From a virus: a stretch of 64,000 bases of DNA. A program made the position numbers and the translations under genes. The notes beneath the pieces are model-generated. The model was not told the DNA's origin. It searched no databases and saw nothing but the letters and a program-made list of their open reading frames with translations. Positions 29,371 through 44,069 of the stretch are shown here, one piece after another; within the stretch, counting starts at the first letter, position 1, and each line of letters starts with the position of its first letter. Location of the stretch: the IMG/VR virus record IMGVR_UViG_3300042691_053605, positions 78,918 through 142,917 of that record; one strand, written 5' to 3'.

Positions 29371-29582
29371 TAGTTAGGAGTTTTCTCATCGATTATTTGT
29401 TGCATTACGCCAAAGGTCATTGATCGGGACTCCAAGTCCTCAATAATTACTTTAATTGCATAAAACCTCTCAAGCGGAGGAAGATCTTTAATGGCCTCTG
29501 CTATTAAAACAGAGATTTCCGAAATTTTTGTATTGAGTTCATCTGTGTATTCGACCTCAAGATTCTTGTTGACTGTTACCAT
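29370..29582 (-). CDS. hypothetical protein
   Basis: 70-aa ORF. Confidence 0.5.
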   Translation of the reverse strand: MVTVNKNLEVEYTDELNTKISEISVLIAEAIKDLPPLERFYAIKVIIEDLESRSMTFGVMQQIIDEKTPN

Positions 29583-30006
29583 TTGTATTATTTTGTATAT
29601 CTATTTGTGGTATGAGAAGGGTTATTCTGTGCTTTCCTTTTTCTCCGATTGGAATAGGATTTCCTTCCTCATCAATATGTACAAATTTAATGTGGGTTCT
29701 CAAGACAATAATTTGTCTTCCTGTGTACACATTATGGGCTCGGGCTTCCATATACAGAGTTATTGAGGAATTACCTACCTCAGAAGGACAACCGTAAATT
29801 TTTACCAGCTGTCCTTCCCGAGCAGGTTTTTCAAAATAACATTTGTCAATACTGACAGTTACCATTCTGGGAGAATCGCATAATTGCATTGCGTATCCCG
29901 CGGCAGCGGCATCAATCCATGCCAAAAGCTTGCCGCCAAAAAGATTTCCGTGAAAGCCTAAATCGCTTTTCTTAATTGGGTGTGTGTTTAGTAATTCCAT
30001 TACCAT
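29557..30006 (-). CDS. acyl-CoA thioesterase (hotdog fold)
   Basis: HGNLFGGKLLAWIDAAA...VTVSID..F..P. Confidence 0.88.
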   Translation of the reverse strand: MVMELLNTHPIKKSDLGFHGNLFGGKLLAWIDAAAAGYAMQLCDSPRMVTVSIDKCYFEKPAREGQLVKIYGCPSEVGNSSITLYMEARAHNVYTGRQIIVLRTHIKFVHIDEEGNPIPIGEKGKHRITLLIPQIDIQNNTNGNSQQES

Positions 30007-30677
30007 TCTGCTCCTTTATGTGAATCTACATAAGCAATTTCCTTTTTGCTCATAATTTCAGAAATTTCGTCAAAGGAGTACGGACGAAATTCTGGGTGTG
30101 TATCTACTCCTACATCCATTGTTTTCCCGTTTGCACAGCGAGTTGGATGCGTTCCGCTTGCTAAGGCGTACAAATCATCATATCTCTTTGTGTTTAGGAG
30201 TTCCATAATTACGTGTGCAGAAACCGATGGCTCTAGTGTTCCGTGACTGTGTCCGTGTAACATCCAGGATCCTTCATGGGATCTATTCCATACCCGATGA
30301 GCATAATGGCTCATAATAATTTTTTGGCCATTAATAGTTGCCTCCCGGTAAAAATCTACAGATGAAAACAGCGACTGCAATTCTCCATCATTGCGGATAA
30401 TCCGTTCGTCATGATTTCCGTAAATCAAATGAATGTTTTGGCAATTAATGCGGGAACGAAATTCACGGTAGTACTTTATGTCGTTAAAACAGTAGTCGCC
30501 TAATAGGAAGAGCACGTCATTTGTATCTACTGTGCTATTGATATTATTTGCCAAGGCGTCATCCATGTCCTGTAAAAGTTCAAAGTCTCGACATCGGCTT
30601 TTATCCGTCCAGCTTGAACTGCCGCGGCAGATATTTTTATGATGATAGTGTGTATCACTAGTAAAGAAAACATTCAT
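30000..30677 (-). CDS. calcineurin-like metallophosphoesterase
   Basis: SDTH, LGD, GNHD and HGHSH motifs. Confidence 0.9.
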   Translation of the reverse strand: MNVFFTSDTHYHHKNICRGSSSWTDKSRCRDFELLQDMDDALANNINSTVDTNDVLFLLGDYCFNDIKYYREFRSRINCQNIHLIYGNHDERIIRNDGELQSLFSSVDFYREATINGQKIIMSHYAHRVWNRSHEGSWMLHGHSHGTLEPSVSAHVIMELLNTKRYDDLYALASGTHPTRCANGKTMDVGVDTHPEFRPYSFDEISEIMSKKEIAYVDSHKGAEW

Positions 30678-31603: not shown

Positions 31604-32509
31604 TTATTGAATTAAAAATATATGTGATAAAGCATGTTTACATTTTTCGTGTGTGATTTCACCGGAAGCCACGATTTCTTCCATTTCTTTTTGAAATTCT
31701 AGAGTTTCTTTTGTTAACTCGTGTTTGTCGCTTTTAATCTTAAATAGCGGTGATTTTGCGTAAAAGAAAATTGGTACATTATTTTGTGAACGTTCTTCTA
31801 GCATTTTATCGCCAAGTTCAAAATGTCTTTCATAATAATGAATGTTATCTGCGCAATGGTAGTACTTTCCAAGTTTAAGGTCTGGATAGTGTTCGCGTAA
31901 ATTATGCCACATGGTTTGCATTACTGCGGCAAAAAACGGAACATCATAGCTGTAACCGTAAAACAAATCATTGGAACGCATTTGAACTTTCATATGTAGT
32001 TCGTCTTGGCGAATCCAAAAATTAAGATAAAAAGTGCATACAAAATCCTTGTTACCTTCATACTGAAACTCAGGACGATTAACAAAAGAGATTGCCTGAC
32101 GGCTTTCTTTATCTTTTACCAAGGAATCGTATGCCCAAATTAGCTGTTTGCTGTAGAACAAGAGATTTCCATAATTGGAATTGATATTGCCATCCTCGTC
32201 TGCAATACGGTTCCAAAAAGAGGAAAAGTTCTTGATGTACTCAATGTTCCTATCGCCATTTAGATACCAGTACATTTCACCTGCAAAGTATTTCCAATTA
32301 AACGGACGTGATTGGAAATCCGGAATTGGAAACTGCGGAGAAATTGGAATAGTTTCAAGGACAAGCTCGCGGACTTTTTGTCCTCGAGGCGCGGTTTCTA
32401 GCCCGCTTTCTTTTAATTTGTTTAGGGTATCAAGAAACGCATCAGAGGCAGACGAAACTCCTGATTTGATTAGATAACTCTTCAAAACTTCGATATTGGT
32501 CACCTTCAT
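31604..32509 (-). CDS. thymidylate synthase-family enzyme, dCMP hydroxymethylase (T4 gp42-like)
   Basis: DFVCT...QMRSNDLFYGYSYD; Asp at the specificity position that is Asn in dUMP-specific ThyA and Asp in gp42. Confidence 0.8.
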   Translation of the reverse strand: MKVTNIEVLKSYLIKSGVSSASDAFLDTLNKLKESGLETAPRGQKVRELVLETIPISPQFPIPDFQSRPFNWKYFAGEMYWYLNGDRNIEYIKNFSSFWNRIADEDGNINSNYGNLLFYSKQLIWAYDSLVKDKESRQAISFVNRPEFQYEGNKDFVCTFYLNFWIRQDELHMKVQMRSNDLFYGYSYDVPFFAAVMQTMWHNLREHYPDLKLGKYYHCADNIHYYERHFELGDKMLEERSQNNVPIFFYAKSPLFKIKSDKHELTKETLEFQKEMEEIVASGEITHEKCKHALSHIFLIQ

Positions 32510-32999
32510 TTACTTTAATTATTAGTTTGTTCTTTATTTTGCTGTTTTCAACTGCTCGGTCAAACGCTTCAATCTCTGATCTTTTCTTTTCTACATCAGC
32601 AGAATACGAATTGCCATCATCCTGTGTTACAATAAACTCAGGATCTGCTTTTAGGTATATGAGAAATACCTCATTATCATGGTCAATACCAAATTTTGGT
32701 TCCATACGGAGAACCCATTCCTGCGGATCACTGTTTCGATAGAGCGAACCCCAGACAAGTTCGCCAAGGTGAGCACGATTCCAAAAGAGTACCTGATTAG
32801 GCATTCTTTCCCGTAAAAAAATGTAATGGGAAAACTCTTCAAAGAAAGACTGTTTTTGATAACTGGTCTTTTCTTCATTGGTATCGCCTTTTGGAAAGGA
32901 CCAATGGCGAACGGAATAATTGCGAAGGTTTTTAGTTAGTTCCGCAATATGACTGTCTTTGCCACAGCGGTCCAGGCCTTCAAAAATGATTAACTTCAT
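32442..32999 (-). CDS. thymidylate/dNMP kinase
   Basis: IIFEGLDRCGKDS P-loop; NRAHLGE. Confidence 0.85.
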   Translation of the reverse strand: MKLIIFEGLDRCGKDSHIAELTKNLRNYSVRHWSFPKGDTNEEKTSYQKQSFFEEFSHYIFLRERMPNQVLFWNRAHLGELVWGSLYRNSDPQEWVLRMEPKFGIDHDNEVFLIYLKADPEFIVTQDDGNSYSADVEKKRSEIEAFDRAVENSKIKNKLIIKVNEGDQYRSFEELSNQIRSFVCL

Positions 33000-33047: not shown

Positions 33048-33803
33048 TTAAATTCCAACAGAATCTTTTATGTGTTGAGGAATTTCAATTATTGGCTGAT
33101 TATGCGTTGCAAAATACCATTTTTCAATTTCTTCTTTAGATTGTTTTCTATAATGCCAATTATAGTTGTTTTTAACAGTATTGCTGGACCACTTTAATTT
33201 TGAATACCTAATGTGTCTTTCTGTACATATATTAAAATCAAAACGATGTAAATGCAGCAAAAGCAAATCTTTTTCGAGAGGTATTTTAGTTTGGCTTTTT
33301 ATTTCATCCATATTTTCATGCAATCCAATACACCAATTAATAGGTTTGTTTGTTATCAAAGTTTTATTATAGTAGTTGCTTCTAACCCAAAAATTTCTTT
33401 GCGAAAAAATTGGTTTCGAACCATCAAACTCAGGTTCTTTATTAGGCAAATGAATTATTTCATACCCAGTGCATTTAACAAAATCTTTATCCAATTTATG
33501 AATATAGTTATCTAGGCCTTCTGGATGATAAATTATTTCATCTACGTCAGTTGGAATTACATATTCATACTCTTCCAACAGTTTTTTATGAAATTCTTTT
33601 ATTGCCTCAAAAAGTTCTACCGCATCAAGGATATTCCTTTCAGTATGTACAACACGGCAGCCCGTTGGCTTTATTTCAGAATTAAAGTCTAAAAAATAGA
33701 TATCTTCCACCGATAAAAACCTGGAATAATAGGCTAACCAGACAGGAGAAAACGTAGTTTCGTCTTTTACGGGACAAAATACTGCAAATTTTTTCTTTTT
33801 CAT
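33048..33803 (-). CDS. GT2-like glycosyltransferase
   Basis: PVKDE...W..YY; TDVDE DxD motif. Confidence 0.75.
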   Translation of the reverse strand: MKKKKFAVFCPVKDETTFSPVWLAYYSRFLSVEDIYFLDFNSEIKPTGCRVVHTERNILDAVELFEAIKEFHKKLLEEYEYVIPTDVDEIIYHPEGLDNYIHKLDKDFVKCTGYEIIHLPNKEPEFDGSKPIFSQRNFWVRSNYYNKTLITNKPINWCIGLHENMDEIKSQTKIPLEKDLLLLHLHRFDFNICTERHIRYSKLKWSSNTVKNNYNWHYRKQSKEEIEKWYFATHNQPIIEIPQHIKDSVGI

Positions 33804-34483
33804 TTTGCTTGTAATTCAAATGTAGTAAGTATTGGAAAATGATCCGAAAGCTCGGAAGGCATAACCTCTTGTTTAATAGGAACTGCTCGGCCACGGCCTA
33901 CACAATAATCGATTCTTCCAAATTCCGTAGTTCGGTCTTCGCCAATATCCATGCATTCGGAAAGAAAAACTTGTGCCTCTGGTGTATTCGGTAAAACATT
34001 CATGTCTCCACCAAGTATAAGATCTTCGGGAAACTTTATGGCATGCAAATTTTCCCAGGATCTGTCAGTGTGTACAATTCCAGTGTAACCATCATACGGC
34101 ATATGTACATTTACTACCGAAATTAGTCCATCAATTTCAACAATAATTTCTTGCGCGTAACAGGCCTCTCGATTAAGATCTGAAAGCAAATAGCTTTTCT
34201 TTTCAAAAATTGGAAACCGTGAAAGTATACATATTCCATATTCGCCGGCTCCTCTGAAATTTAGACGTTTTGTCCAATAGGATTCCCAGCCTTCACCAAA
34301 TCCTTTGCGGAATTCTTCTACCTGATCTCCAGCGCCTGAACGATTTGCAAATCGGTCAACCTCTTGTAGCAGAATAATATCGGGTTCAAACGATACCGCC
34401 TCCTCTACAAATGCGGGTATATCTATGTAGCCTTCGTTTGTTAGTCCGTGACGTATGTTCCAAGTGAGTACTTTTATGTTCAT
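33800..34483 (-). CDS. endonuclease/exonuclease/phosphatase (EEP) family protein
   Basis: TWNI, LQEVD, GDMN, RIDY and SDHFP motifs. Confidence 0.9.
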   Translation of the reverse strand: MNIKVLTWNIRHGLTNEGYIDIPAFVEEAVSFEPDIILLQEVDRFANRSGAGDQVEEFRKGFGEGWESYWTKRLNFRGAGEYGICILSRFPIFEKKSYLLSDLNREACYAQEIIVEIDGLISVVNVHMPYDGYTGIVHTDRSWENLHAIKFPEDLILGGDMNVLPNTPEAQVFLSECMDIGEDRTTEFGRIDYCVGRGRAVPIKQEVMPSELSDHFPILTTFELQAK

Positions 34484-35289
34484 TCAATATATTTAGATGC
34501 AATCCAGGAGAAAGAACATGTATTAGGTTTTTCTCTTAATCTTTGTTCGTTCCATTTTTCAATTTTGTTATGATTAACTGAAGTGTCATATAAATGTACA
34601 CTATAAGAAACCGGCAGGATAAGTTCTGGAAGAAACTTATCATACAGTTTCTCAGACTCCGTATAGCGGTACGGATAAAAAGCTTCCCACTGCAGAGTTT
34701 TGAAATGACCTTGTAAACTTTCACGAGCAACAAGTGTGCTGTGCATTTTTACGCTGTGCTCATCCCAGTATTTGTCCTTTCCTTTACTCCGAAACCAGGT
34801 GTATTCTGCGTACCATTCCTCAAGGTATTTTGAATTAGGCGGGCTTACAAGTACACCGTTTCCGTATTTCCAATCGCGCGATCCCAGTTTACCTACAATA
34901 AACTTTTCTTCTGCAATAAGATCATCAAATGACTTAATAGTAATAGTATCAAAATCAGAATACACTCCGCCTTGCTCCATAAGCAATTTTATTCTGAATA
35001 CATCAGAGGTGTGTGCGGGATGCACCAACGGGTTTCCAAAAACTTCGGTTGGCGGTTCTACAATATGTAAATTAACAAATGATGAAACCTTTTCCCAGTA
35101 TTCACCGGTAGGCTGCGCGTTTGTATAAAAGTTAATAGAGTAATCCGGATTATGCTGATGAAATGACTTAACTGCCAAGTATCTCATCAAATCCCATTGC
35201 GCTTCCCGTTTACTTTTATCGTTGTAGAAATAAATGTAGTGAGCCTTCTTATACTCCGGGTTAGCCGTTTTTGTTTCAAACAGAGACAT
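34480..35289 (-). CDS. GT32-like DxD glycosyltransferase
   Basis: SDVFRI..L...GGVYSDFD. Confidence 0.85.
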   Translation of the reverse strand: MSLFETKTANPEYKKAHYIYFYNDKSKREAQWDLMRYLAVKSFHQHNPDYSINFYTNAQPTGEYWEKVSSFVNLHIVEPPTEVFGNPLVHPAHTSDVFRIKLLMEQGGVYSDFDTITIKSFDDLIAEEKFIVGKLGSRDWKYGNGVLVSPPNSKYLEEWYAEYTWFRSKGKDKYWDEHSVKMHSTLVARESLQGHFKTLQWEAFYPYRYTESEKLYDKFLPELILPVSYSVHLYDTSVNHNKIEKWNEQRLREKPNTCSFSWIASKYIE

Positions 35290-36485
35290 TAAAATAGTGA
35301 TTTAGAGGTTTGATCGGTTTTACTATCTATCCGCTTCGCAAGATTGTCCTGTCTGAAATAATCTGTACCGCTATCCGCAAGTTCGCCGTTCATCCACTTA
35401 AGAACCTGCAGTGTCCAATCTGCTGCTGTATTAACTGGAACATTTTGAGAGATTTGTGAATACCCTTCATGTGATAACTCAAAGTTTTCATCCATGCCCA
35501 TCAGCCACATAATCTCTTGAATGTTCATCCAACGATTTTCGGTAGGATGCACTGATTGTTGAAGAGTTCGCCCAACCACCGCAGGTATATCAACCGCATT
35601 AATATGAGGAGTGCTGTCCCATACCCTCTTTTGCATTGCACGTTCAAAAAGTTTTAAGTACTTTTCAGATTTTGCATCTGTACGGCCTTTCAGATAATCA
35701 ATAACACTCTCAGCTCGAGTCTGCTCACGAAATGCGTATATCAGAATTGAACGGTTGCCTTCAAGTGCAGCCTCGTGTGGAGTTTTCTTTTCCACATCAG
35801 TTAACCACTGAAATAGCGGATCTTCTAAAAGATTGTCTTTTAGGAAAAACTTATCGGTGTATTTTCCTTGTGGAACACGACTTAAATACTCCTCAAGTGT
35901 TTCCTTTGGTTTTTCAATCCATTCCAGTATCGGAGCAGTTTCTGACTTCCAAAAGAAGTAAAAAGATCTTACGCGATTCTGCGGAATACCGTGCATTGCA
36001 GTGCTAGTCTTTATTACGCTAAAAGAGTAACCGTGACGTTTTCCAATTTCGTATAGCGTATCTGCCACTTTTTTACCCAGTGCGGTATACAAGCCCGGAG
36101 CGTTTTCTCCCCAGAGTACTCTGGGTTTTACATTTTCCAACACATATTCCGAGGACTTGTACATCCATTCGTTTTGAACTGCATCAGCGCCTCGTGCCTT
36201 TGCACTGCCTTCTTTATTAGAAGAATTTAAGGCAGATAGCCCAGCACATGGACAGAGGCTTACCACCATATCCACCCCTTCAATATTTTCTGTAAAGGTA
36301 CGGTCCCAGGCTATTCCGTCTTCACCAATAGTTCCATACGGAACTTCAGGAAAGTTTAGTCGGCAATGACTATCATTACTCTGAAATTGTTCATAAGATA
36401 ACATAAATTGAGGATCTTGACCTGTGGCCTTTTTTGCTCCTAATACCATTCCGCCAATCAGCGGTACAATTGCTCCGTACTTCAT
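35289..36485 (-). CDS. C5-cytosine methyltransferase-like protein, paralog 1 (atypical motif I)
   Basis: PC (CPCAGLS), EN (GENAPG), Q.R.R and QNVP motifs; motif I reads IVPLIGG rather than FxGxGG. Confidence 0.8.
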   Translation of the reverse strand: MKYGAIVPLIGGMVLGAKKATGQDPQFMLSYEQFQSNDSHCRLNFPEVPYGTIGEDGIAWDRTFTENIEGVDMVVSLCPCAGLSALNSSNKEGSAKARGADAVQNEWMYKSSEYVLENVKPRVLWGENAPGLYTALGKKVADTLYEIGKRHGYSFSVIKTSTAMHGIPQNRVRSFYFFWKSETAPILEWIEKPKETLEEYLSRVPQGKYTDKFFLKDNLLEDPLFQWLTDVEKKTPHEAALEGNRSILIYAFREQTRAESVIDYLKGRTDAKSEKYLKLFERAMQKRVWDSTPHINAVDIPAVVGRTLQQSVHPTENRWMNIQEIMWLMGMDENFELSHEGYSQISQNVPVNTAADWTLQVLKWMNGELADSGTDYFRQDNLAKRIDSKTDQTSKSLF

Positions 36486-37705
36486 TAAAATAAACAGGTT
36501 GAGTTGCAGGGTTCCTCCACTTCTTTAGGAGCTCCTGATAAATTATTTTGTTTGAAAAACTTTTGTCCAGAGGACGGTAGTTCTCCTTTTATGTATTTGA
36601 TAACTTCAAGCGTCCAATCGCGTGCTGTTGCGGTAGGAACATTTTGTGCAATATGATTCCACTGGTTTTTGTTCAACAATTGAAAATCATGCGGTAGACC
36701 CATTAAATGCATATACTCGCGGATACTGATAAATCTCTTCTCTTCGGGATGGGAACCGCAAATCATATTTTTGGAAATAACTGCCTTAAAAGTATCAACA
36801 CCTAATCTTGGTGAAACATCCCAGAATCCTTTTCCTTCTGCCAGCTTTTTCTTTATATGATGCAGCGAACGTGAATCCACCGAGTCTGGAAGAACTTTAT
36901 CCGTGTACGCAATGCATTCATCCAACCAACCTTTTTTAATTAAGAGGTAGTTCATAGTACCCGAGTCTTCTGACATAATTTCTTTCCAGGTCATACCTTT
37001 TTCCTCCTCCATAAACTTGATGATAGGCAGTCCTTCAAGCTTCCAGGTATTAAAAGTTTCTTGCAGAGTTGCATCAGCAGGAACCTCTTTTAAGTATTCA
37101 CCAAGAGTTTTTCTTTCCCGATTGTAGAAATTCATAATCGGCGCGTATTCACTGTCCCAGAAGAAGTAAAATGTTCTTGGTCGTTCCTGTGGAATTCCAT
37201 GTTTACTTGTAGTAGTTTTCATCAAACTCATACTGTAACCATGTTTTTGACCAATTTCAAACAGTTTTTCTGCTACGCCTTTTCCGATTGCTCCAAAAAG
37301 CCCAGGTGCGTTTTCTCCAAAGAAAACTCTGGGTTTAAGAGTTCCCAGAACAAATTCAGCAGATCGGTACATCCACTCATTCTGAGCGGCATCTGAACCT
37401 CTAGATTTGCCTCCACCATTCTTGGAATAGTTTAACATAGACAATCCTGCGCATGGGCATGTAGTGCTTACAAAGTCCAAACGATCTACCACTTCTTCGG
37501 TTTCATCAAGATTAATGTACGGAACATCCGGCCAGTATTCGCGTAAATGGCTTTCATTTTCCTGAAACCCTGTATATGTGTAGAGAGCCTTTGGCTTATT
37601 ACCCGTTGCCATGGAATTACCAATAGCGAATCCTCCAATAAGAGGTACAATTGCTGCCCAGCTTAATCCACTATCTTCAGTGCTTGTTTTACTGTTGTTT
37701 TCCAT
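36485..37705 (-). CDS. C5-cytosine methyltransferase-like protein, paralog 2 (atypical motif I)
   Basis: IVPLIGG, TCPCAGLS, GENAPG, PQERPR and QNVP. Confidence 0.8.
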   Translation of the reverse strand: MENNSKTSTEDSGLSWAAIVPLIGGFAIGNSMATGNKPKALYTYTGFQENESHLREYWPDVPYINLDETEEVVDRLDFVSTTCPCAGLSMLNYSKNGGGKSRGSDAAQNEWMYRSAEFVLGTLKPRVFFGENAPGLFGAIGKGVAEKLFEIGQKHGYSMSLMKTTTSKHGIPQERPRTFYFFWDSEYAPIMNFYNRERKTLGEYLKEVPADATLQETFNTWKLEGLPIIKFMEEEKGMTWKEIMSEDSGTMNYLLIKKGWLDECIAYTDKVLPDSVDSRSLHHIKKKLAEGKGFWDVSPRLGVDTFKAVISKNMICGSHPEEKRFISIREYMHLMGLPHDFQLLNKNQWNHIAQNVPTATARDWTLEVIKYIKGELPSSGQKFFKQNNLSGAPKEVEEPCNSTCLF

Positions 37706-39153
37706 TCTTCTAAAAAATTGTAATAGTTAAAGTGTTCTTTTAATTCGTGCATTACTTGTGCCTTTTCCTCGGGATGGCTGTCGTAATATGCAATTCTTTC
37801 CAGGATTTCTTCATGATCGTGAACCACAATCTTTTTCTGTAGCCACTCGGGTATTCCCAAAAATTCCGGGTCATACCGATAATCAAGAAGAGGAAAAACG
37901 TCCAGTGAAAGATAAAGGGCAGGCCTCCAGTTGATGATATCGTAGTGCGCAATATTCTTTGCAACCAAGGAGTATTCGTATTTGGCAAGTGTTCCATTTA
38001 GTTCTTGTGTATCAATATATCCTCGGTAGTTTGGATGCGTAGAAACCGATTCCCAGAGTTCTGAAATAATTGGATCCTCTTCAATTCTCTTTTGAAAACG
38101 GGAAACACTGCGGTTTTCTTTCTTTCTTTCCGAAATATGTCCGTCTACTTTAGGCGGCACATAGATATCAATTCCATCTCCGCGAAGATTTCTTAGGTAT
38201 GTATTCCAAACATCTCTGCGTGTATTTTTACTCAAGAATACTGTTCCGTAAAAGCAAAACTTATGTTTCTTGGTTTTGTCGGTTTCCCAAGGTTTGTCAT
38301 AGAGAAAATGTTGCATTTCTGCCACTGGAAAGGCTTCAAAATCTCGGGTTCCACGATAATCACGAGCAAGCGCAAAATTGGTATGTGCAGGCGAAATGCT
38401 ATCAAATAGTCTATAATAGGATCCTGGATCTACAACATAATAATAAGACCTCTTAAAATTTCCATTAGCAACCGCGTTATCAATACACCATTTGCCAAGA
38501 TTAAACGCCAAGTTTTTCATCCAATAGGTAAAAGTAAGAATACCCACATGGTAATCATACTTGGCAGAAATCTTTTTGCAGTTCTTATGGATAAAGTCAA
38601 TTATTTCCGGGTCGTTTCCAATGTAGTCATGAAATTCATTACCTTTGTTTACCGCGGAGGAAGTTCGGATCTTTTCTGAAACATCTCGTTTTGCCCAGTA
38701 ATCTTTAAGCGGAAGGAACGCCCAGCGTTCATCCAACCACATAACATATTCAGGTGTGTACTTAGGCATTTCAGCATTGAAATGATGTATTACAACATCG
38801 CGATTATGTTCCCACGAAAGATTATCATCATCTTCGGAAACTTCAGCCGCGCGCTTAAACTTCTTGGCTTTGATTTCCTCAAAATCATTATGGTGTATAG
38901 AATATATGTTGCTAAACCCCATGTCAACCAATCGGCTAGGATCATTATCAACTCCTAACCATATAAGATTAAAACGTGGCTCAAGAACCTCTTTTACCAT
39001 TTGACGGTACCAACCAATAATATGATCCTGTTCTTTAGAAAACACAAGCCTTGAAAAGATCAAGGCCATGGTTTCTTTGTTAGGATCCAGCGGCTTAACG
39101 TTGTATGAACGTATAAGCTTAAGAGTTTTTTCGGGTGCGTCAAATAATGCCAT
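37663..39153 (-). CDS. DNA beta-glucosyltransferase-like (GT-B) protein
   Basis: C-terminus DIINWR...FPLLDYRYD...VHDHEEILERI...EWKTTVKQAL resembles the T4 BGT C-terminal domain as I recall it. Confidence 0.55.
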   Translation of the reverse strand: MALFDAPEKTLKLIRSYNVKPLDPNKETMALIFSRLVFSKEQDHIIGWYRQMVKEVLEPRFNLIWLGVDNDPSRLVDMGFSNIYSIHHNDFEEIKAKKFKRAAEVSEDDDNLSWEHNRDVVIHHFNAEMPKYTPEYVMWLDERWAFLPLKDYWAKRDVSEKIRTSSAVNKGNEFHDYIGNDPEIIDFIHKNCKKISAKYDYHVGILTFTYWMKNLAFNLGKWCIDNAVANGNFKRSYYYVVDPGSYYRLFDSISPAHTNFALARDYRGTRDFEAFPVAEMQHFLYDKPWETDKTKKHKFCFYGTVFLSKNTRRDVWNTYLRNLRGDGIDIYVPPKVDGHISERKKENRSVSRFQKRIEEDPIISELWESVSTHPNYRGYIDTQELNGTLAKYEYSLVAKNIAHYDIINWRPALYLSLDVFPLLDYRYDPEFLGIPEWLQKKIVVHDHEEILERIAYYDSHPEEKAQVMHELKEHFNYYNFLEEWKTTVKQALKIVD

Positions 39154-40574
39154 TAGAATAATTTTGTAGAGTTTGTTACTGGCGCGGGTTTAGGCGCGTT
39201 CCATTTTACAAATACCTGCTTTGCTCCATCAAGGTAACTTAATTGTTTTCCCATAACTTCTTGAATTCCAAGAGCCGGAATCTTTCCTTCTTCCTCAAAT
39301 TTTGCAATTTCTTCGGCGTATACCGAACCGCAAAGATTTGTTAAGAGTTCGCGCTCGTCAGAGTATTTTCCAGTGTCTTTACCCATTGAAAAGATATGTT
39401 CCAAGGTTTCTGGAATAACACGGTCCGCATTAAACTCCTCGTATGCAACTTCAAAAGAAGTTTGTTGATATCTTTTCATGGTTGGAATATCATGACTCAT
39501 TTCCACAATTTGTGCAGCCACGGCTTCCACATCAGTTCCGTCAGAAAGAATACAGAAGTTTGGAATATCCGCATACAAGGTTCCATCACTGATGCGATTA
39601 TGTTCTGCCCAGTGACGATCAAAAAGAGGAACTGCGCCAGTACCAATAATTTCAATCTGTGTATATTCCATACGGTCACCGTAATTTTGCGCCTGTTTTG
39701 GTAAGGAATAGAATGCAGAACCAAACATATGTGTTGCAAAATGGTTTAGTGCAAAATCACGAGTACATGGTTCCCATGCTTTTACTGGGCCATCGCCGTA
39801 AACGCGGTTTTCGATATTTTTATTGATTTTTGTATAGGTGGTCCATGGATGATCAATAATCTGGAATTTAGCGCCTACCGATGCCTCAATACCGTGAATT
39901 TCCGTAACAAATGTGGGATCAATTTGGTGGGCATGATAACCAACTTCTACCGTACGATCAATGTTTTTAAGAGTAGACCAACGACCAACATAGGTTAAAC
40001 CACGTTTGCGTGTTTCAATTGGATATTTTTCTTTGTACATTAAAAGTTCCTCAAAGTTCATCCACATTTTGAAACGGCACATACGTTCATTTGCCTTTTT
40101 GGACGGCATCATTGTAATTACCTGTTGAGCCATCCAGGTATCAGTACCAAAGTGATAAACCAGGTCTGCCTCATTTAACATGGGAACGAGATAAGTAATC
40201 TTATCAACATTTGCCTTTGAGATCTCGTGAACAAACATTACCTTCAAGGCTTGCAAAGGTTTGAAAAGATTATGGTAGAACTTACGAATTACATTGTGTT
40301 CGTACTTATTGTTTGGATAAGAATTGAAGATCACCAAGTCATACTTTTCCAATCGGTTCTTAATTTCATCAATGTTACCTACATTAAATGAAACATAATT
40401 TAATTTGTGTGATCCTCGACGAGTATAAAACTTCTCATCGTAAGAATAGGTGTCAAGTTGACAGCCTACTTTTTTGGACCAGAGTTCAAGTTCTGCTCCT
40501 ACTCGGGTTACTCCACAGCCTTCAATTCCTTGGCCATAGACTACCGCGATCTTTTTGTCTTTCCAGTTAGTCAT
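39153..40574 (-). CDS. DNA alpha-glucosyltransferase-like protein
   Basis: GIEGCGVTR, NSYP, VGRWSTLK and MEYTQIE..G.GAVPLF match T4 AGT motifs (GLEGCGVTK, IGRTTTWK, LEYTHLE). Confidence 0.85.
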   Translation of the reverse strand: MTNWKDKKIAVVYGQGIEGCGVTRVGAELELWSKKVGCQLDTYSYDEKFYTRRGSHKLNYVSFNVGNIDEIKNRLEKYDLVIFNSYPNNKYEHNVIRKFYHNLFKPLQALKVMFVHEISKANVDKITYLVPMLNEADLVYHFGTDTWMAQQVITMMPSKKANERMCRFKMWMNFEELLMYKEKYPIETRKRGLTYVGRWSTLKNIDRTVEVGYHAHQIDPTFVTEIHGIEASVGAKFQIIDHPWTTYTKINKNIENRVYGDGPVKAWEPCTRDFALNHFATHMFGSAFYSLPKQAQNYGDRMEYTQIEIIGTGAVPLFDRHWAEHNRISDGTLYADIPNFCILSDGTDVEAVAAQIVEMSHDIPTMKRYQQTSFEVAYEEFNADRVIPETLEHIFSMGKDTGKYSDERELLTNLCGSVYAEEIAKFEEEGKIPALGIQEVMGKQLSYLDGAKQVFVKWNAPKPAPVTNSTKLF

Positions 40575-40575
40575 A

Positions 40576-42165
40576 TTAGTTATTTGAGTTATTTATCGTG
40601 ATTAAATTAATGAGTTGTCTTCCGCGTGCAAACATGGCTTTTTGACGATCCGGATTATCCGCATGAAACGGAATTGCCGTAATCAGCAACAATATTGCCA
40701 GTCTTTTTAAGAGATCTACATCATAACCGTGGCCTTGTAATTCGCTTTCCAAAAATGTGGAAAGACTTTCTGTTCCAGGAACCCAGTCAATTGTAACGTC
40801 TTCACCGTCCCATGAATATCGATTTGCTACAATCATTGCGTATCCGCAGTAGAAATCCTGTAGCAGTTTTCCCATATCATATCGTAAATCTCCTTGAGTC
40901 CACATTTGGCCAAAGATGCCACGAGGATCTACAAATTTAATGCTTCCACTGTGTGGATCATAAATGATATTTCCAAGATGGCTATCACCGTGCATTACCT
41001 GAGACCAGGTAGGAGACGCTGAAAGCTCCAATGCAGTATCAAGTAGGAATCGTGTTTGGTTTTTGCGAAGAGGAACATATTTTGAAATATCATCCAGGCG
41101 ATTACGTGTTTTGATAAAATAGTGATCAAAACAATATTTAGCTGCTTCATCACGGTTAACTGTTTGAATCGTGGATGAATAAAAAACATCATGATGCACT
41201 TGCAAAATTTTGCGGATAATTTCGTGCCAAATGTCAGTACGCAAATTATCGTAAACCAGGACTTCATTTAATGCAGTTCCAGGTTCAAGACTCATTTTTA
41301 GAGTACCGCCAGGACTTTCCAATATCCGCGGACAAAACAGAGACTGCGCCTCATTTAAGTTTTTGAACCAGTTTTTCTCAGCTTCAATTTTTTCGGCCTT
41401 TCCTAAATCAGAGGAACTCTTGGTTACGGTTCCGTAAAAAGTATCAACATCAATATGATTAAAGGAACGGGCTGTCATACTCAGTAATTTTGCCTTTGAT
41501 TCATAATAGGTATTAAGTTCTCCACAGTCATACCAATTATGAACCTCTGATAAATTCATTGGGCCTCTTTTCATATAGGATTCCAATAGAGCAGCAATTT
41601 GATATTCACCTTTATGCGTTGGCTTTTTCATACCCGCGGTTAGAGCTTTATCAAATTTTTCGCGGCTAACAAAATTGTAAACGCCGATTAGAGCCTTATC
41701 AGTTGGAACCTCGTTGTCAGGTTTGTCATATAAAATACCATCTTCATCAACCAAACACCAACGGTGTGGATCCGGAACCGCGTGAACTGCCAAGAAGTCA
41801 TAGCTGTAATTAAAATCATCCAGGCAAATGGTATCGCCTAACCACACAGTAATGGCAGTGTCCTCAAATTCCAGAGCAGTATAACCAACATTAATTGCGT
41901 GAAGCGGACCCAGCTTCTCGGCTTGCACTACGCATTTGATATTTTTGTCGGGATATACTCGGCTCGTAAACTCCGATATGTCCCCAATCTCGTTTTCCAC
42001 TATTACTATCTCGGAAACGTTCGTATCTTCTAAGATTTTTTCTACGACGTACGAGATCAAGGGCCTCCCATTCACTGGGATCATTGCCTTGCTGACCCCG
42101 CGAGACAGAGGTTTCATTCGGGTTGCTAGACCCGCCGCTGGAATAATTACGCTTCTCTTCTTCAT
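40576..42165 (-). CDS. sugar-phosphate nucleotidyltransferase fused to an APH/choline-kinase-like domain
   Basis: IPAAGLATRM..K.M.PV (NTP_transferase); HGDSHLGN, FVDPRG and YDMGK (APH-like). Confidence 0.88.
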   Translation of the reverse strand: MKKRSVIIPAAGLATRMKPLSRGVSKAMIPVNGRPLISYVVEKILEDTNVSEIVIVENEIGDISEFTSRVYPDKNIKCVVQAEKLGPLHAINVGYTALEFEDTAITVWLGDTICLDDFNYSYDFLAVHAVPDPHRWCLVDEDGILYDKPDNEVPTDKALIGVYNFVSREKFDKALTAGMKKPTHKGEYQIAALLESYMKRGPMNLSEVHNWYDCGELNTYYESKAKLLSMTARSFNHIDVDTFYGTVTKSSSDLGKAEKIEAEKNWFKNLNEAQSLFCPRILESPGGTLKMSLEPGTALNEVLVYDNLRTDIWHEIIRKILQVHHDVFYSSTIQTVNRDEAAKYCFDHYFIKTRNRLDDISKYVPLRKNQTRFLLDTALELSASPTWSQVMHGDSHLGNIIYDPHSGSIKFVDPRGIFGQMWTQGDLRYDMGKLLQDFYCGYAMIVANRYSWDGEDVTIDWVPGTESLSTFLESELQGHGYDVDLLKRLAILLLITAIPFHADNPDRQKAMFARGRQLINLITINNSNN

Positions 42166-42566
42166 GGTTTAACAAATCTTCTGATTGTGATTGATTCATA
42201 ATTTTCAATTGGTTGATAGGCAAAATCGGATGGCGAAAGGGCTTTATCGTCTACATAGTAAACATTAGGACCCCAAGGCTTTCCCATAACAAGCGTGTCA
42301 TACGGAACCTCATGTTCCTTAAGCCAGTCCTCAAGAACTGGACGAACATTTGCCTCAATTGCTGCAACATCGCCTTTGTAAGTTTTCATACCACGAGCCG
42401 TATGCAAAATAACCGTGTGCCCTTCAGCTTTAAGCTTCTGTAATTGTTTAATCACAGGTTTAATAGGCACGGCGTTTGCATAGTCAAACGGGCTGGTTTC
42501 ATCTGGGTATCTGCTAGCTACGCAAATAGTTCCATCGATGTCCATTACAAATGTTGATTTTACCAT
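42162..42566 (-). CDS. HAD phosphatase (capsule biosynthesis phosphatase-like)
   Basis: MDIDGTIC, HTARG, GKP and YVDDK. Confidence 0.88.
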   Translation of the reverse strand: MVKSTFVMDIDGTICVASRYPDETSPFDYANAVPIKPVIKQLQKLKAEGHTVILHTARGMKTYKGDVAAIEANVRPVLEDWLKEHEVPYDTLVMGKPWGPNVYYVDDKALSPSDFAYQPIENYESITIRRFVKP

Positions 42567-43202: not shown

Positions 43203-43461
43203 TTTCTTTTATTTTTTGTGGTACTTTAAATGTGTGAACAGTATTGGTTGTGGCCACCTCTATCAGTGAAGGATTCGGCCATTGATTAAATCTCACATTT
43301 AAGATAGTGATCTTTTTAAGATCCGCGCAATAGGCTTTTACCAAATCCAGTGAAGCCTCCACTTCGTTCTGTTCAATAATTTCCTTAATTTTTGCCTTTT
43401 GAATTTTGTTAAGCATTTCGTACTTTGGTACGATGTCATTAACGGAATACGCTCTTGCCAT
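43195..43461 (-). CDS. hypothetical protein
   Basis: 88 aa, coupled to the sigma gene. Confidence 0.5.
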   Translation of the reverse strand: MARAYSVNDIVPKYEMLNKIQKAKIKEIIEQNEVEASLDLVKAYCADLKKITILNVRFNQWPNPSLIEVATTNTVHTFKVPQKIKEND

Positions 43462-44069
43462 TAGAATAGTTTATTTTGATTAGATAGTTTCTTTAAGAGT
43501 TCTTTGCCTTTTTTCAATTTATACCATACAATATTTATATCACAACCAATTTCCTGAGCAATCTCTTCATGAGAATACCCTTTGAAATACTTTAGTGAAA
43601 TCGCTTTTGAAATGTCTTCTGGTAGTTTTGCCACAAGCAGTCTTACAAGTTTTACCACCTGTTCACGATCAATGTTTTGCAAAATATCCGTATTGTCCGC
43701 TTCAAAAAATTGTGAGGAATCTGCGCCAACTCCGTACGGCTGTGTTTGCACAGTCTTTTTCTTCTTGGGAATGCAGTTAACATAGTTATGAAGACACGCA
43801 ATCATCCAAGTAAAAAACTTGGATTTTTCTGGATCATATTGACGAATCTTTACAAAGGAGTTTCCCATAACCGCCATTACAATATCCTCCAAGTCTTCTT
43901 CATCGGCTTGTGGAAGCCTGCGTTTTGCGGCAGTGTACAAGATAGGTTTGTACTTTTGGGCTAATTTGTTATAGGCTTTTTCATCGCCATCAATTGCTTC
44001 TAAAACCAAGGCCTTATCCTCTTCGTGGGTTAAGTATTTAACGGGCTTATAGCCTTTTCGGATCCTCAT
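43461..44069 (-). CDS. ECF-type RNA polymerase sigma factor
   Basis: Region 2 (GDEKAYNKL..KY...EDLEDIV...YDPEKSKFFTW) and region 4 (LPE....I.LKYFKGYSHEEIAQEIG). Confidence 0.9.
   Translation of the reverse strand: MRIRKGYKPVKYLTHEEDKALVLEAIDGDEKAYNKLAQKYKPILYTAAKRRLPQADEEDLEDIVMAVMGNSFVKIRQYDPEKSKFFTWMIACLHNYVNCIPKKKKTVQTQPYGVGADSSQFFEADNTDILQNIDREQVVKLVRLLVAKLPEDISKAISLKYFKGYSHEEIAQEIGCDINIVWYKLKKGKELLKKLSNQNKLF

Follow-up and report, generated by a model that had tools for sequence, protein, structure and literature searches.

The present analysis concerns two adjacent genes, here called MT-A and MT-B, in the virus record IMGVR_UViG_3300042691_053605. The window, which is the whole stretch of DNA analysed, is 64,000 nt in length and forms the second half of this 142,917-bp viral record, the completeness of which is about 50% according to CheckV. 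It was found that both gene products belong to a family of C5-cytosine methyltransferase (C5-MTase) homologues, the PLxGG family, which is a discrete and essentially phage-only clade apart from the general C5-MTase population. This clade is a standing component of gene modules for the pre-replicative synthesis of 5-hydroxymethylcytosine (hmC) and the glycosylation of DNA. It is thus fixed in a setting that would leave an ordinary C5 methylase without work. Judging from this linkage to hmC genes and from the conserved changes in their cofactor motifs, MT-A and MT-B probably perform an undescribed DNA-modification step. The two genes are as follows.

35289-36485, minus strand: MT-A, 398 aa, PF00145 match of 58.6 bits, C-terminus ...SKSLF
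36485-37705, minus strand: MT-B, 406 aa, PF00145 match of 54.9 bits, C-terminus ...STCLF

The paralogs and their cofactor site

Both proteins match the Pfam family PF00145 well above its cut-off of 22 bits, and the whole record has no other PF00145 gene. The alignment begins at profile position 10 for MT-A and at position 55 for MT-B; thus, motif I is missed in both, and motifs I-III are missed in MT-B. MT-A and MT-B share 42% identity over 388 aa (E 8e-105), which marks them as true paralogs and speaks against a chance resemblance. Reading of the translations revealed that motif I (AIVPLIGG), motif IV (CPCAGLS), and motif VI (GENAPGL) are alike in both. Motif VIII is PQNRVRSFYFFW in MT-A and PQERPRTFYFFW in MT-B, with the common pattern PQxRxR(S/T)FYFFW, while motif X is QNVPVNTA and QNVPTATA, respectively. 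Cys80, Glu127, Arg171, and Arg173 are intact in MT-A, and MT-B has the same catalytic residues. A sequence-only reading of this DNA had described two adjacent paralogs with PC, ENA, and QxRxR motifs and an IVPLIGG motif I. This description was correct in every particular.

An AlphaFold2 model of MT-A was obtained from a 19-sequence alignment (pLDDT 87, pTM 0.87). Residues 1-365 of the model superpose on M.HaeIII (1dct) with a Z score of 24.2 and a root-mean-square deviation (rmsd) of 3.0 Å over 269 aligned residues. The model also superposes on CmoX (Z 23.7), M.HhaI (Z 22-23), and the catalytic domain of DNMT1, in a Foldseek search as well. MT-A is thus modelled with the full two-domain C5-MTase fold, the same over its whole length as that of the PF00145 enzymes M.HhaI, M.HaeIII, and Dcm (Z 22-24, rmsd 3.0-3.5 Å). 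The PLxGG family and the type II C5-MTases are alike in motifs IV (PC), VI (EN), VIII (QxRxR), and IX, in the layout of the large and small domains, and in having a variable target-recognition region. In contrast to the type II enzymes, the PLxGG family has PL(I/V)GG, QNVP, and no Gln in motif IV, the acidic residue assigned to the end of strand 2 is unconserved, and its N-terminal 80 residues are unrecognisable by sequence. Moreover, it is essentially limited to phages, with no copy in isolate genomes, and is tied to dCMP hydroxymethylase genes.

Residue conservation was counted in 132 diverse family members (MT-A numbering). C80, E127-N128, Q169, R171, and R173 are found in both paralogs and in 129-132 of the 132 members, and they align to the M.HhaI and M.HaeIII residues. 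His313-Pro314, Arg318, and Glu324 of motifs IX-X are essentially invariant. Motif I, however, reads (I/V)-P-L-(I/V)-G-G in the family and not FxGxGG; Pro8 and Leu9, like the whole pattern P8-L9-x-G11-G12, are present in about 95% of the members. The residue after the PC of motif IV is A in 102 members, S in 22, and G in 7, and is never the Q of the classical PCQ. In motif VI, ENV is replaced by ENA in 131 members. Q347-N348-V-P of motif X, conserved in 97%, aligns to N-A-V-P of M.HaeIII, while the classical motif is GN(A/S)V. Residue 32, which follows strand 2 and corresponds to the Glu40 site of M.HhaI by the secondary structure of the model, is Glu in MT-A and Thr in MT-B, and is acidic in 34 of the 132 members. 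The family does conserve Asn37-Asp/Glu38, five residues past this position, as well as an acidic residue that follows strand 3, and the former might substitute for the acidic residue after strand 2.

In M.HhaI, Glu40 binds the ribose of S-adenosylmethionine (SAM), and the FxGxGG motif I is the SAM loop, whose Phe stacks on the adenine. Gln82 and Asn304 of the same enzyme are conserved residues adjoining the transferable group; the Q82A replacement cuts methylation 16-fold and favours bulkier groups (PMC3526304). The natural substitutions of the family fall on these Gln82/Asn304 positions, which have been used in methyltransferase engineering. An abandoned pocket would drift, whereas the changed cofactor motifs are invariant; thus, the pocket appears to be still used, for something altered. 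This pattern argues for a cofactor site that has been rebuilt and then frozen by selection, without implying the loss of SAM binding. The remodelling, which had been noticed in motif I, extends to PC(A/S/G), QNVP, and apparently the strand-2 acidic residue, and is invariant across the family at PLxGG, PC(A/S/G), and QNVP.

With the full family profile, solved methyltransferases are matched in motifs IV-VIII and IX-X only. An 82-position N-terminal family profile hit no methyltransferase in the PDB at E<=10, and hhalign to Escherichia coli Dcm covered columns 68-182 only, with a probability of 22%. Since motifs I-III are not mappable onto solved methyltransferases by sequence, the assignment of motif II rests on predicted secondary structure.

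MT-A and MT-B are 66% identical across motifs IV-VIII and 22% identical in the 115-residue variable or target-recognition region, which is the usual sign of enzymes with different target sequences. In a quick IQ-TREE run, the SH-aLRT support was 100 for nine close A-type sequences and 99 for the B clade. MT-B has orthologs of its own at 54-71% identity and is nearer to the bulk of the family, as 243 of 352 relatives score higher against MT-B than against MT-A. The tandem arrangement is real in this window but is no family trait, because tandem copies were seen in only one (L015) of 87 other viral loci. In the L015 locus, the B-type gene lies upstream of the A-type gene, which is also the order in this window, and each clade contains one of the two copies. 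Since both clades are well supported and each includes an L015 copy, the duplication or double acquisition must be old, and both copies have been kept intact. Several metagenome A-type and B-type proteins are encoded on equally long contigs, which suggests further pairs. A complex prediction of an MT-A and MT-B heterodimer on two alignments scored 0.00 and gave no verdict, and thus no evidence either way.

Linkage of the family to hmC genes

A phmmer search over 1.84 billion representative sequences (clusters at 50% identity) gave 707 matches at E<=1e-3 and 272 at E<=1e-30. At least 547 family relatives are on IMG/VR contigs. As for cellular genomes, 15 loci were found among 185,579 prokaryotic species genomes (one each), all of them in metagenome-assembled genomes (MAGs) of scattered taxonomy and none in isolates. 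A full-text literature search that did not extend to one relevant 2013 survey found no description of the PLxGG clade or of a C5-MTase homologue in ThyA-type hmC clusters.

The specificity of a thymidylate synthase homologue can be read from a few positions in E. coli numbering: Asp at N177 indicates dCMP specificity, an acidic residue at L143 hydroxymethylation, and Asn at D169 the production of 5-hydroxy-dCMP (PMC13326640). The neighbourhoods of 87 viral loci were analysed with flanks of up to 10 kb. A thymidylate synthase homologue was found within 10 kb in 36 loci, and all 36 homologues have the hydroxymethylase signature (D-x-x-C-T, RSND, and Asp at N177). In a whole-record search of 38 records, a hydroxymethylase homologue with the signature was found in all 13 records rated at least 29% complete, while the records with no match are fragments of 7-26% completeness. 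Canonical thymidylate synthases, where found in those records, are additional to the hydroxymethylase. A hydroxymethylase-type gene was also found within 10 kb in 12 of the 15 MAG loci. Among 42 Dcm-like control loci in viral contigs, a narrow control made up of redundant enteric proviruses, none has a thymidylate synthase homologue. The sequence-only reading had proposed to look for co-occurrence of PLIGG-type MTases with gp42 and AGT genes. The outcome is strongly positive, and the distribution of the family is linked to hydroxymethylase genes rather than independent of hmC genes.

Glycosyltransferases are the commonest functional neighbours of the family. Other frequent neighbours include NAD-dependent sugar epimerase/dehydratases (41 loci), a GT-B-like family (28 loci), AGT-like genes, nucleotidyl- and cytidylyl-transferases, dCMP deaminase, and the replisome genes for PolB, UvsX, and a gp41-type helicase. 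In T4-like metagenomic contigs (L008-L014 and L065-L093), the MT gene lies between the hydroxymethylase/beta-gt region and uvsX-gp40-gp41. In T4 itself, this position is occupied by the segA homing endonuclease gene.

With blastn, no nucleotide-level relatives were found in cultured phages; the relatives there are at the protein level only. Nevertheless, the function of the family is directly testable, since one cultured phage has the same module and others carry more distant relatives. Pseudoalteromonas phage vB_Psh_XG4 (L135, PP712099.1, 82-7549) has genes for a hydroxymethylase, a HAD-like protein, an NTP-transferase/kinase fusion, two glycosyltransferase-like proteins, an MT, and a gp56-like protein in a row. 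This XG4 module is unannotated; its hydroxymethylase has the signature DFMCT/RSCD/PND, and its MT is a PLIGG methyltransferase homologue. In Bacillus phage G, the distant relative gp301 is encoded five genes away from an alpha-glucosyltransferase, a sugar-1-phosphate nucleotidyltransferase, and a HAD phosphatase; another part of this genome encodes a hydroxymethylase-type homologue. In the cyanophage S-TIM5 group, a distant relative is about 2.4 kb (three genes) away from 'ThyA'. The S-TIM5 'ThyA' (L001 8766-9602) has Asp at N177, keeps the C-H motif of thymidylate synthases, and has Cys, not an acidic residue, at 143. From these residues, it may be a dCMP methylase rather than a thymidylate synthase, which would imply 5-methylcytosine DNA in S-TIM5.

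The operon and the hmC module of this genome

MT-B and MT-A lie within a co-directional operon. Overlapping TAATG stop and start codons are found at 36485 and 35289, i.e., at both ends of MT-A, indicating that the genes form one operon. It is listed below from its upstream end, MT-B and MT-A lying between the GT-B-type and the DXD-motif genes; two features outside the operon follow.

42162-42566, minus strand: open reading frame (ORF) at the operon head, candidate small HAD-like phosphatase, so named after the annotation of phage G gp310, at an analogous position
40576-42165, minus strand: fusion of a nucleotidyltransferase (PF00483 58.3 bits) and an APH-type kinase (PF01636 21.1 bits); the same fusion is in the XG4 module
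39153-40574, minus strand: AGT-like DNA alpha-glucosyltransferase homologue, PF11440 27 bits, phrog_2888 2e-86, C-terminus ...STKLF
37663-39153, minus strand: GT-B-type glycosyltransferase-like gene directly upstream of MT-B, PF13524 24.1 bits, under the cut-off of 25; its homologue cluster is present in 28 of the 87 family loci
34480-35289, minus strand: DXD-motif glycosyltransferase directly downstream of MT-A, PF04488 45.9 bits, with the overlapping TAATG
33800-34483, minus strand: endonuclease/exonuclease/phosphatase (EEP)-family protein, PF03372 67.6 bits
33048-33803, minus strand: weak candidate for a GT2-like glycosyltransferase, PF13704 18.7 bits, below the cut-off
32442-32999, minus strand: dNMP (thymidylate-type) kinase homologue, phrog_761 3.8e-09, weak PF02223
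31604-32509, minus strand: thymidylate synthase homologue of the gp42-type dCMP hydroxymethylase kind, PF00303 72.9 bits, T4 dCMP hydroxymethylase (1B49) 1.4e-16
43461-44069, minus strand: sigma factor, phrog_1740 3.4e-21, C-terminus ...NKLF
G000:C1:15586-15939, minus strand, outside the window (locus L181 1084-1563): T4 gp56-like dCTPase homologue, E 4.6e-20, 34% identity, phrog_173 2.2e-19

The pair had been said to sit between glycosyltransferase-like genes, and so it does: AGT-like and PF13524-type genes are upstream, and a PF04488 gene of the DXD type is downstream. The best solved relative of the hydroxymethylase homologue is T4 dCMP hydroxymethylase, with Cys148 and Asp179 aligned. Its signature is DFVCT / RSND / YD, with Asp at the E. 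coli N177 position, an acidic residue at L143, and Asp169 retained, and the 5-hydroxy signature is absent. Pfam MazG (PF03819) had no match in this record or its relatives, while a T4 gp56 protein query was positive in this genome and XG4. Thus, the PF03819 result is a false negative, and the apparent absence of gp56 from three relatives needs the same caution. The T4-type triad of gp42-like hydroxymethylase, dNMP kinase, and gp56-like dCTPase is present in this genome. Since the triad lowers dCTP and supplies hydroxymethyl-dCTP, unmodified C should be scarce in the DNA of this phage. The paradox of C5-MTase-like genes in an hmC genome, pointed out in the sequence-only reading, is borne out and strengthened by the triad. 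A dCMP deaminase gene was not found in this record, which represents about half of the genome, and is present in five of five fuller relatives.

The nucleotidyltransferase/kinase fusion and the small HAD-like protein probably activate a sugar other than host UDP-glucose. Both recur in XG4, and they are found as separate genes in many family loci. The XG4 ORF 930-1325 has the same place in its module as the 42162-42566 protein, and the C-terminal peptides of the two resemble each other. Possible activities of the EEP-family protein are the cleavage of unmodified DNA and the dephosphorylation of sugar phosphates. Directly downstream of the operon (29557-30677, minus strand), a small hotdog-thioesterase-like ORF and a calcineurin-type metallophosphoesterase-like ORF were read by eye.

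Proposed reaction and competing explanations

The only long genes of the window whose products end in LF are MT-A, MT-B, the AGT-like gene, and the sigma factor gene (...SKSLF, ...STCLF, ...STKLF, and ...NKLF, respectively). The C-terminal residues differ between lineages of the family; LF is found in 28 of 132 members, and FF, FA, FS, and IF are found elsewhere. Hydrophobic C-terminal tails attach the T4 polymerase (gp43), gp33, and the late sigma factor gp55 to the sliding clamp. By analogy with these tails, the shared LF tail is perhaps a docking peptide for the sliding clamp, so that the enzymes would act on phage DNA at or behind the fork.

I lean slightly towards a dedicated, non-ordinary step of hmC hypermodification as the role of the pair. 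Tentatively, this step may be a clamp-tethered, non-methyl C5 reaction on hmC DNA. After replication, each enzyme would ride the sliding clamp through its C-terminal LF tail, and its own target-recognition region would read its own short sequence context. A cytosine-type base would be flipped out; in this phage, it would almost always be hmC, though that hmC itself is the flipped base is somewhat doubtful. Cys80 would be added to C6, while Glu127 and Arg173 would hold N3/N4 and O2. No methyl group of SAM would be involved. Instead, the base would react at 5-CH2OH and lose the hydroxyl to form an exocyclic methylene, as in thymidylate-synthase-type chemistry, and this methylene would capture a group X held in the rebuilt former SAM pocket. 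Cys80 would then leave, and the product would be 5-(X-methyl)cytosine at a subset of sites. I infer the clamp docking, the use of hmC as the substrate, the non-methyl chemistry, and the nature of X. It is possible, though rather doubtful, that PLxGG is the first natural SAM-independent or non-methyl family with the C5-MTase fold, converting hmC into 5-(X-methyl)cytosine or else hydroxymethylating or alkylating residual C.

To my knowledge, no natural enzyme performs the atypical reactions of engineered C5-MTases. In vitro, C5-MTases condense thiols onto 5hmC and hydroxymethylate C, and eM.SssI acting on 5hmC with thiols is a chemical precedent for the proposed reaction (PMC7176277). As compared with the engineered M.HhaI Q82A/Y254S/N304A (PMC3526304), the PLxGG family naturally has a small residue where M.HhaI has Gln82, and its motif X is changed too; these are the two conserved positions that were mutated in the laboratory to make room beside C5. 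The engineered enzymes are, however, laboratory variants that still bind SAM analogues, while the PLxGG family has motifs I and II changed as well. The hypermodification of phage DNA keeps yielding new enzymology as well as tools for epigenome sequencing. Should the chemistry prove new, the family would be a natural counterpart of the atypical reactions achieved in the laboratory and would probably make a new DNA base in abundant aquatic phages. The two paralogs here would then write the base in two sequence contexts.

Several points weigh against this proposal. PF00145 proteins are mostly plain methyltransferases, and I know of no natural example of the proposed chemistry. The glycosyltransferases of the operon itself compete for the same hydroxyl, and no evident gene supplies the nucleophile or cofactor. 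A single-sequence gp56 search found no match in three near-complete relatives, so some parts of the family may not replace all of their C. SAM may be bound in a non-canonical pose, and adenosine might still be held by the conserved Asn37-Asp/Glu38 and the acidic residue that follows strand 3. Finally, the S-TIM5 enzyme may make 5-methyl-dCMP, and 5-methylcytosine has no leaving group for the proposed chemistry.

The main rival is an unlikely but serious alternative: ordinary SAM-dependent C5 methylation, by each paralog in its own context, of cytosines that escaped hmC replacement. This would mask bare C from host restriction or from C-specific nucleases of the phage. PF00145 membership, the complete fold, and the presence of all the catalytic residues for methyl transfer to C5-H fit this explanation, as does the conservation of the motif I GG, of Asn37-Asp/Glu38, and of the acidic residue that follows strand 3. 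The identities of 66% in the core and 22% in the target-recognition region are a classic sign of different specificities. Furthermore, selection against any bare C could explain why the family is linked to hmC phages, and a role in finishing the job would suit the S-TIM5 relative, which lies beside a possible dCMP methylase. If so, hmC phages routinely finish off leftover cytosines, which would change the view of how complete base replacement is. However, motifs I, II, IV (Gln), and X all depart from the classical form, with the changes invariant across the family, and the equivalent Q82A replacement lowers methylation by M.HhaI 16-fold. With the gp56-like dCTPase, the substrate would be very scarce; nevertheless, the gene has been kept, duplicated, and preserved intact. 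Were the methylase an ordinary one, it should also occur in bacteria and outside hmC phages, but the family was found in neither.

It is still less probable that the enzymes mop up residual C behind the fork by adding a hydroxymethyl or other group from formaldehyde, folate, or a SAM-derived cofactor. The residues for cytosine recognition and C5-H chemistry are intact while the pocket is rebuilt, a clamp-type tail would suit a proof-modifier that follows the fork, and M.HhaI hydroxymethylates GCGC sites in vitro (PMC7176277). A natural precedent is CmoX of Synechococcus phage S-B43 (PDB 8yf3, Z 23.7), a phage C5-MTase homologue that uses a non-methyl SAM derivative in a hypermodification pathway (PMC12783734). 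CmoX differs in its SPPC motif, Arg350, its partner CmoA, and its action on unmodified C in GC sites (PMC12783734), while the motif here is (C/P)PCA, as CPCA or PPCA. Against this, the CmoA profile (TIGR00740) gave no hit in this record, in XG4, or in three near-complete relatives, which thus lack a cofactor synthase of this kind. Moreover, a mop-up enzyme should not depend on sequence context, whereas the target-recognition regions here have diverged in the manner of specificity domains, and formaldehyde is doubtful as a physiological donor.

A CmoA/CmoX-type carboxymethylation was rejected, as there is no SPPC motif and no CmoA match in the five records searched. Phage pathways composed of a C5-MT, a TET/5mYOX, and glycosyltransferases likewise have a C5-MTase homologue clustered with DNA glycosyltransferases and sugar-nucleotide genes for glycosyl-hmC (PMC8256090; bioRxiv 10.1101/2023.12.21.572611). 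Those pathways make 5hmC after replication, whereas here the gp42-type enzyme would make it before replication. This MT-TET-GT route was also ruled out, as the TET/JBP profile (PF12851) had nothing over the cut-off in this about 50%-complete record, S-TIM5, phage G, or 39 related records, three of which are complete. Thus, the two known routes by which phage C5-MTase homologues enter hypermodification do not apply.

Two other roles are very improbable. One is a host-directed weapon that damages or marks the unmodified cytosine DNA of the host, for example by covalent trapping or SAM-free C-to-U deamination, for host shut-down. Obligate co-occurrence with C replacement would make such an activity safe for the phage, and an EEP-family nuclease/phosphatase gene is in the same operon. 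On the other hand, the genes lie amid those for glycosyltransferases and sugar-nucleotide enzymes, not host-shutoff genes, the tail common to the phage sigma factor and the DNA glucosyltransferase homologue points to the phage replication/transcription machinery, and the conserved new pocket suggests ligand binding. The other, equally improbable, is that of non-catalytic base-flipping readers or targeting subunits that present hmC to the neighbouring glycosyltransferases. While such a role would suit the translational coupling to glycosyltransferase genes and the prevalence of glycosyltransferases around the family, the Cys nucleophile, the Glu of ENA, and both Arg residues are conserved in nearly 100% of the 132 members, which is unexpected for a mere binder, and T4 glucosyltransferases need no such partner.

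With the hmC system of T4, this genome shares gp42, dNMP kinase, gp56, and AGT homologues. T4 has no C5-MTase homologue, whereas the module described here adds one or two, together with extra glycosyltransferases and sugar-activating enzymes.

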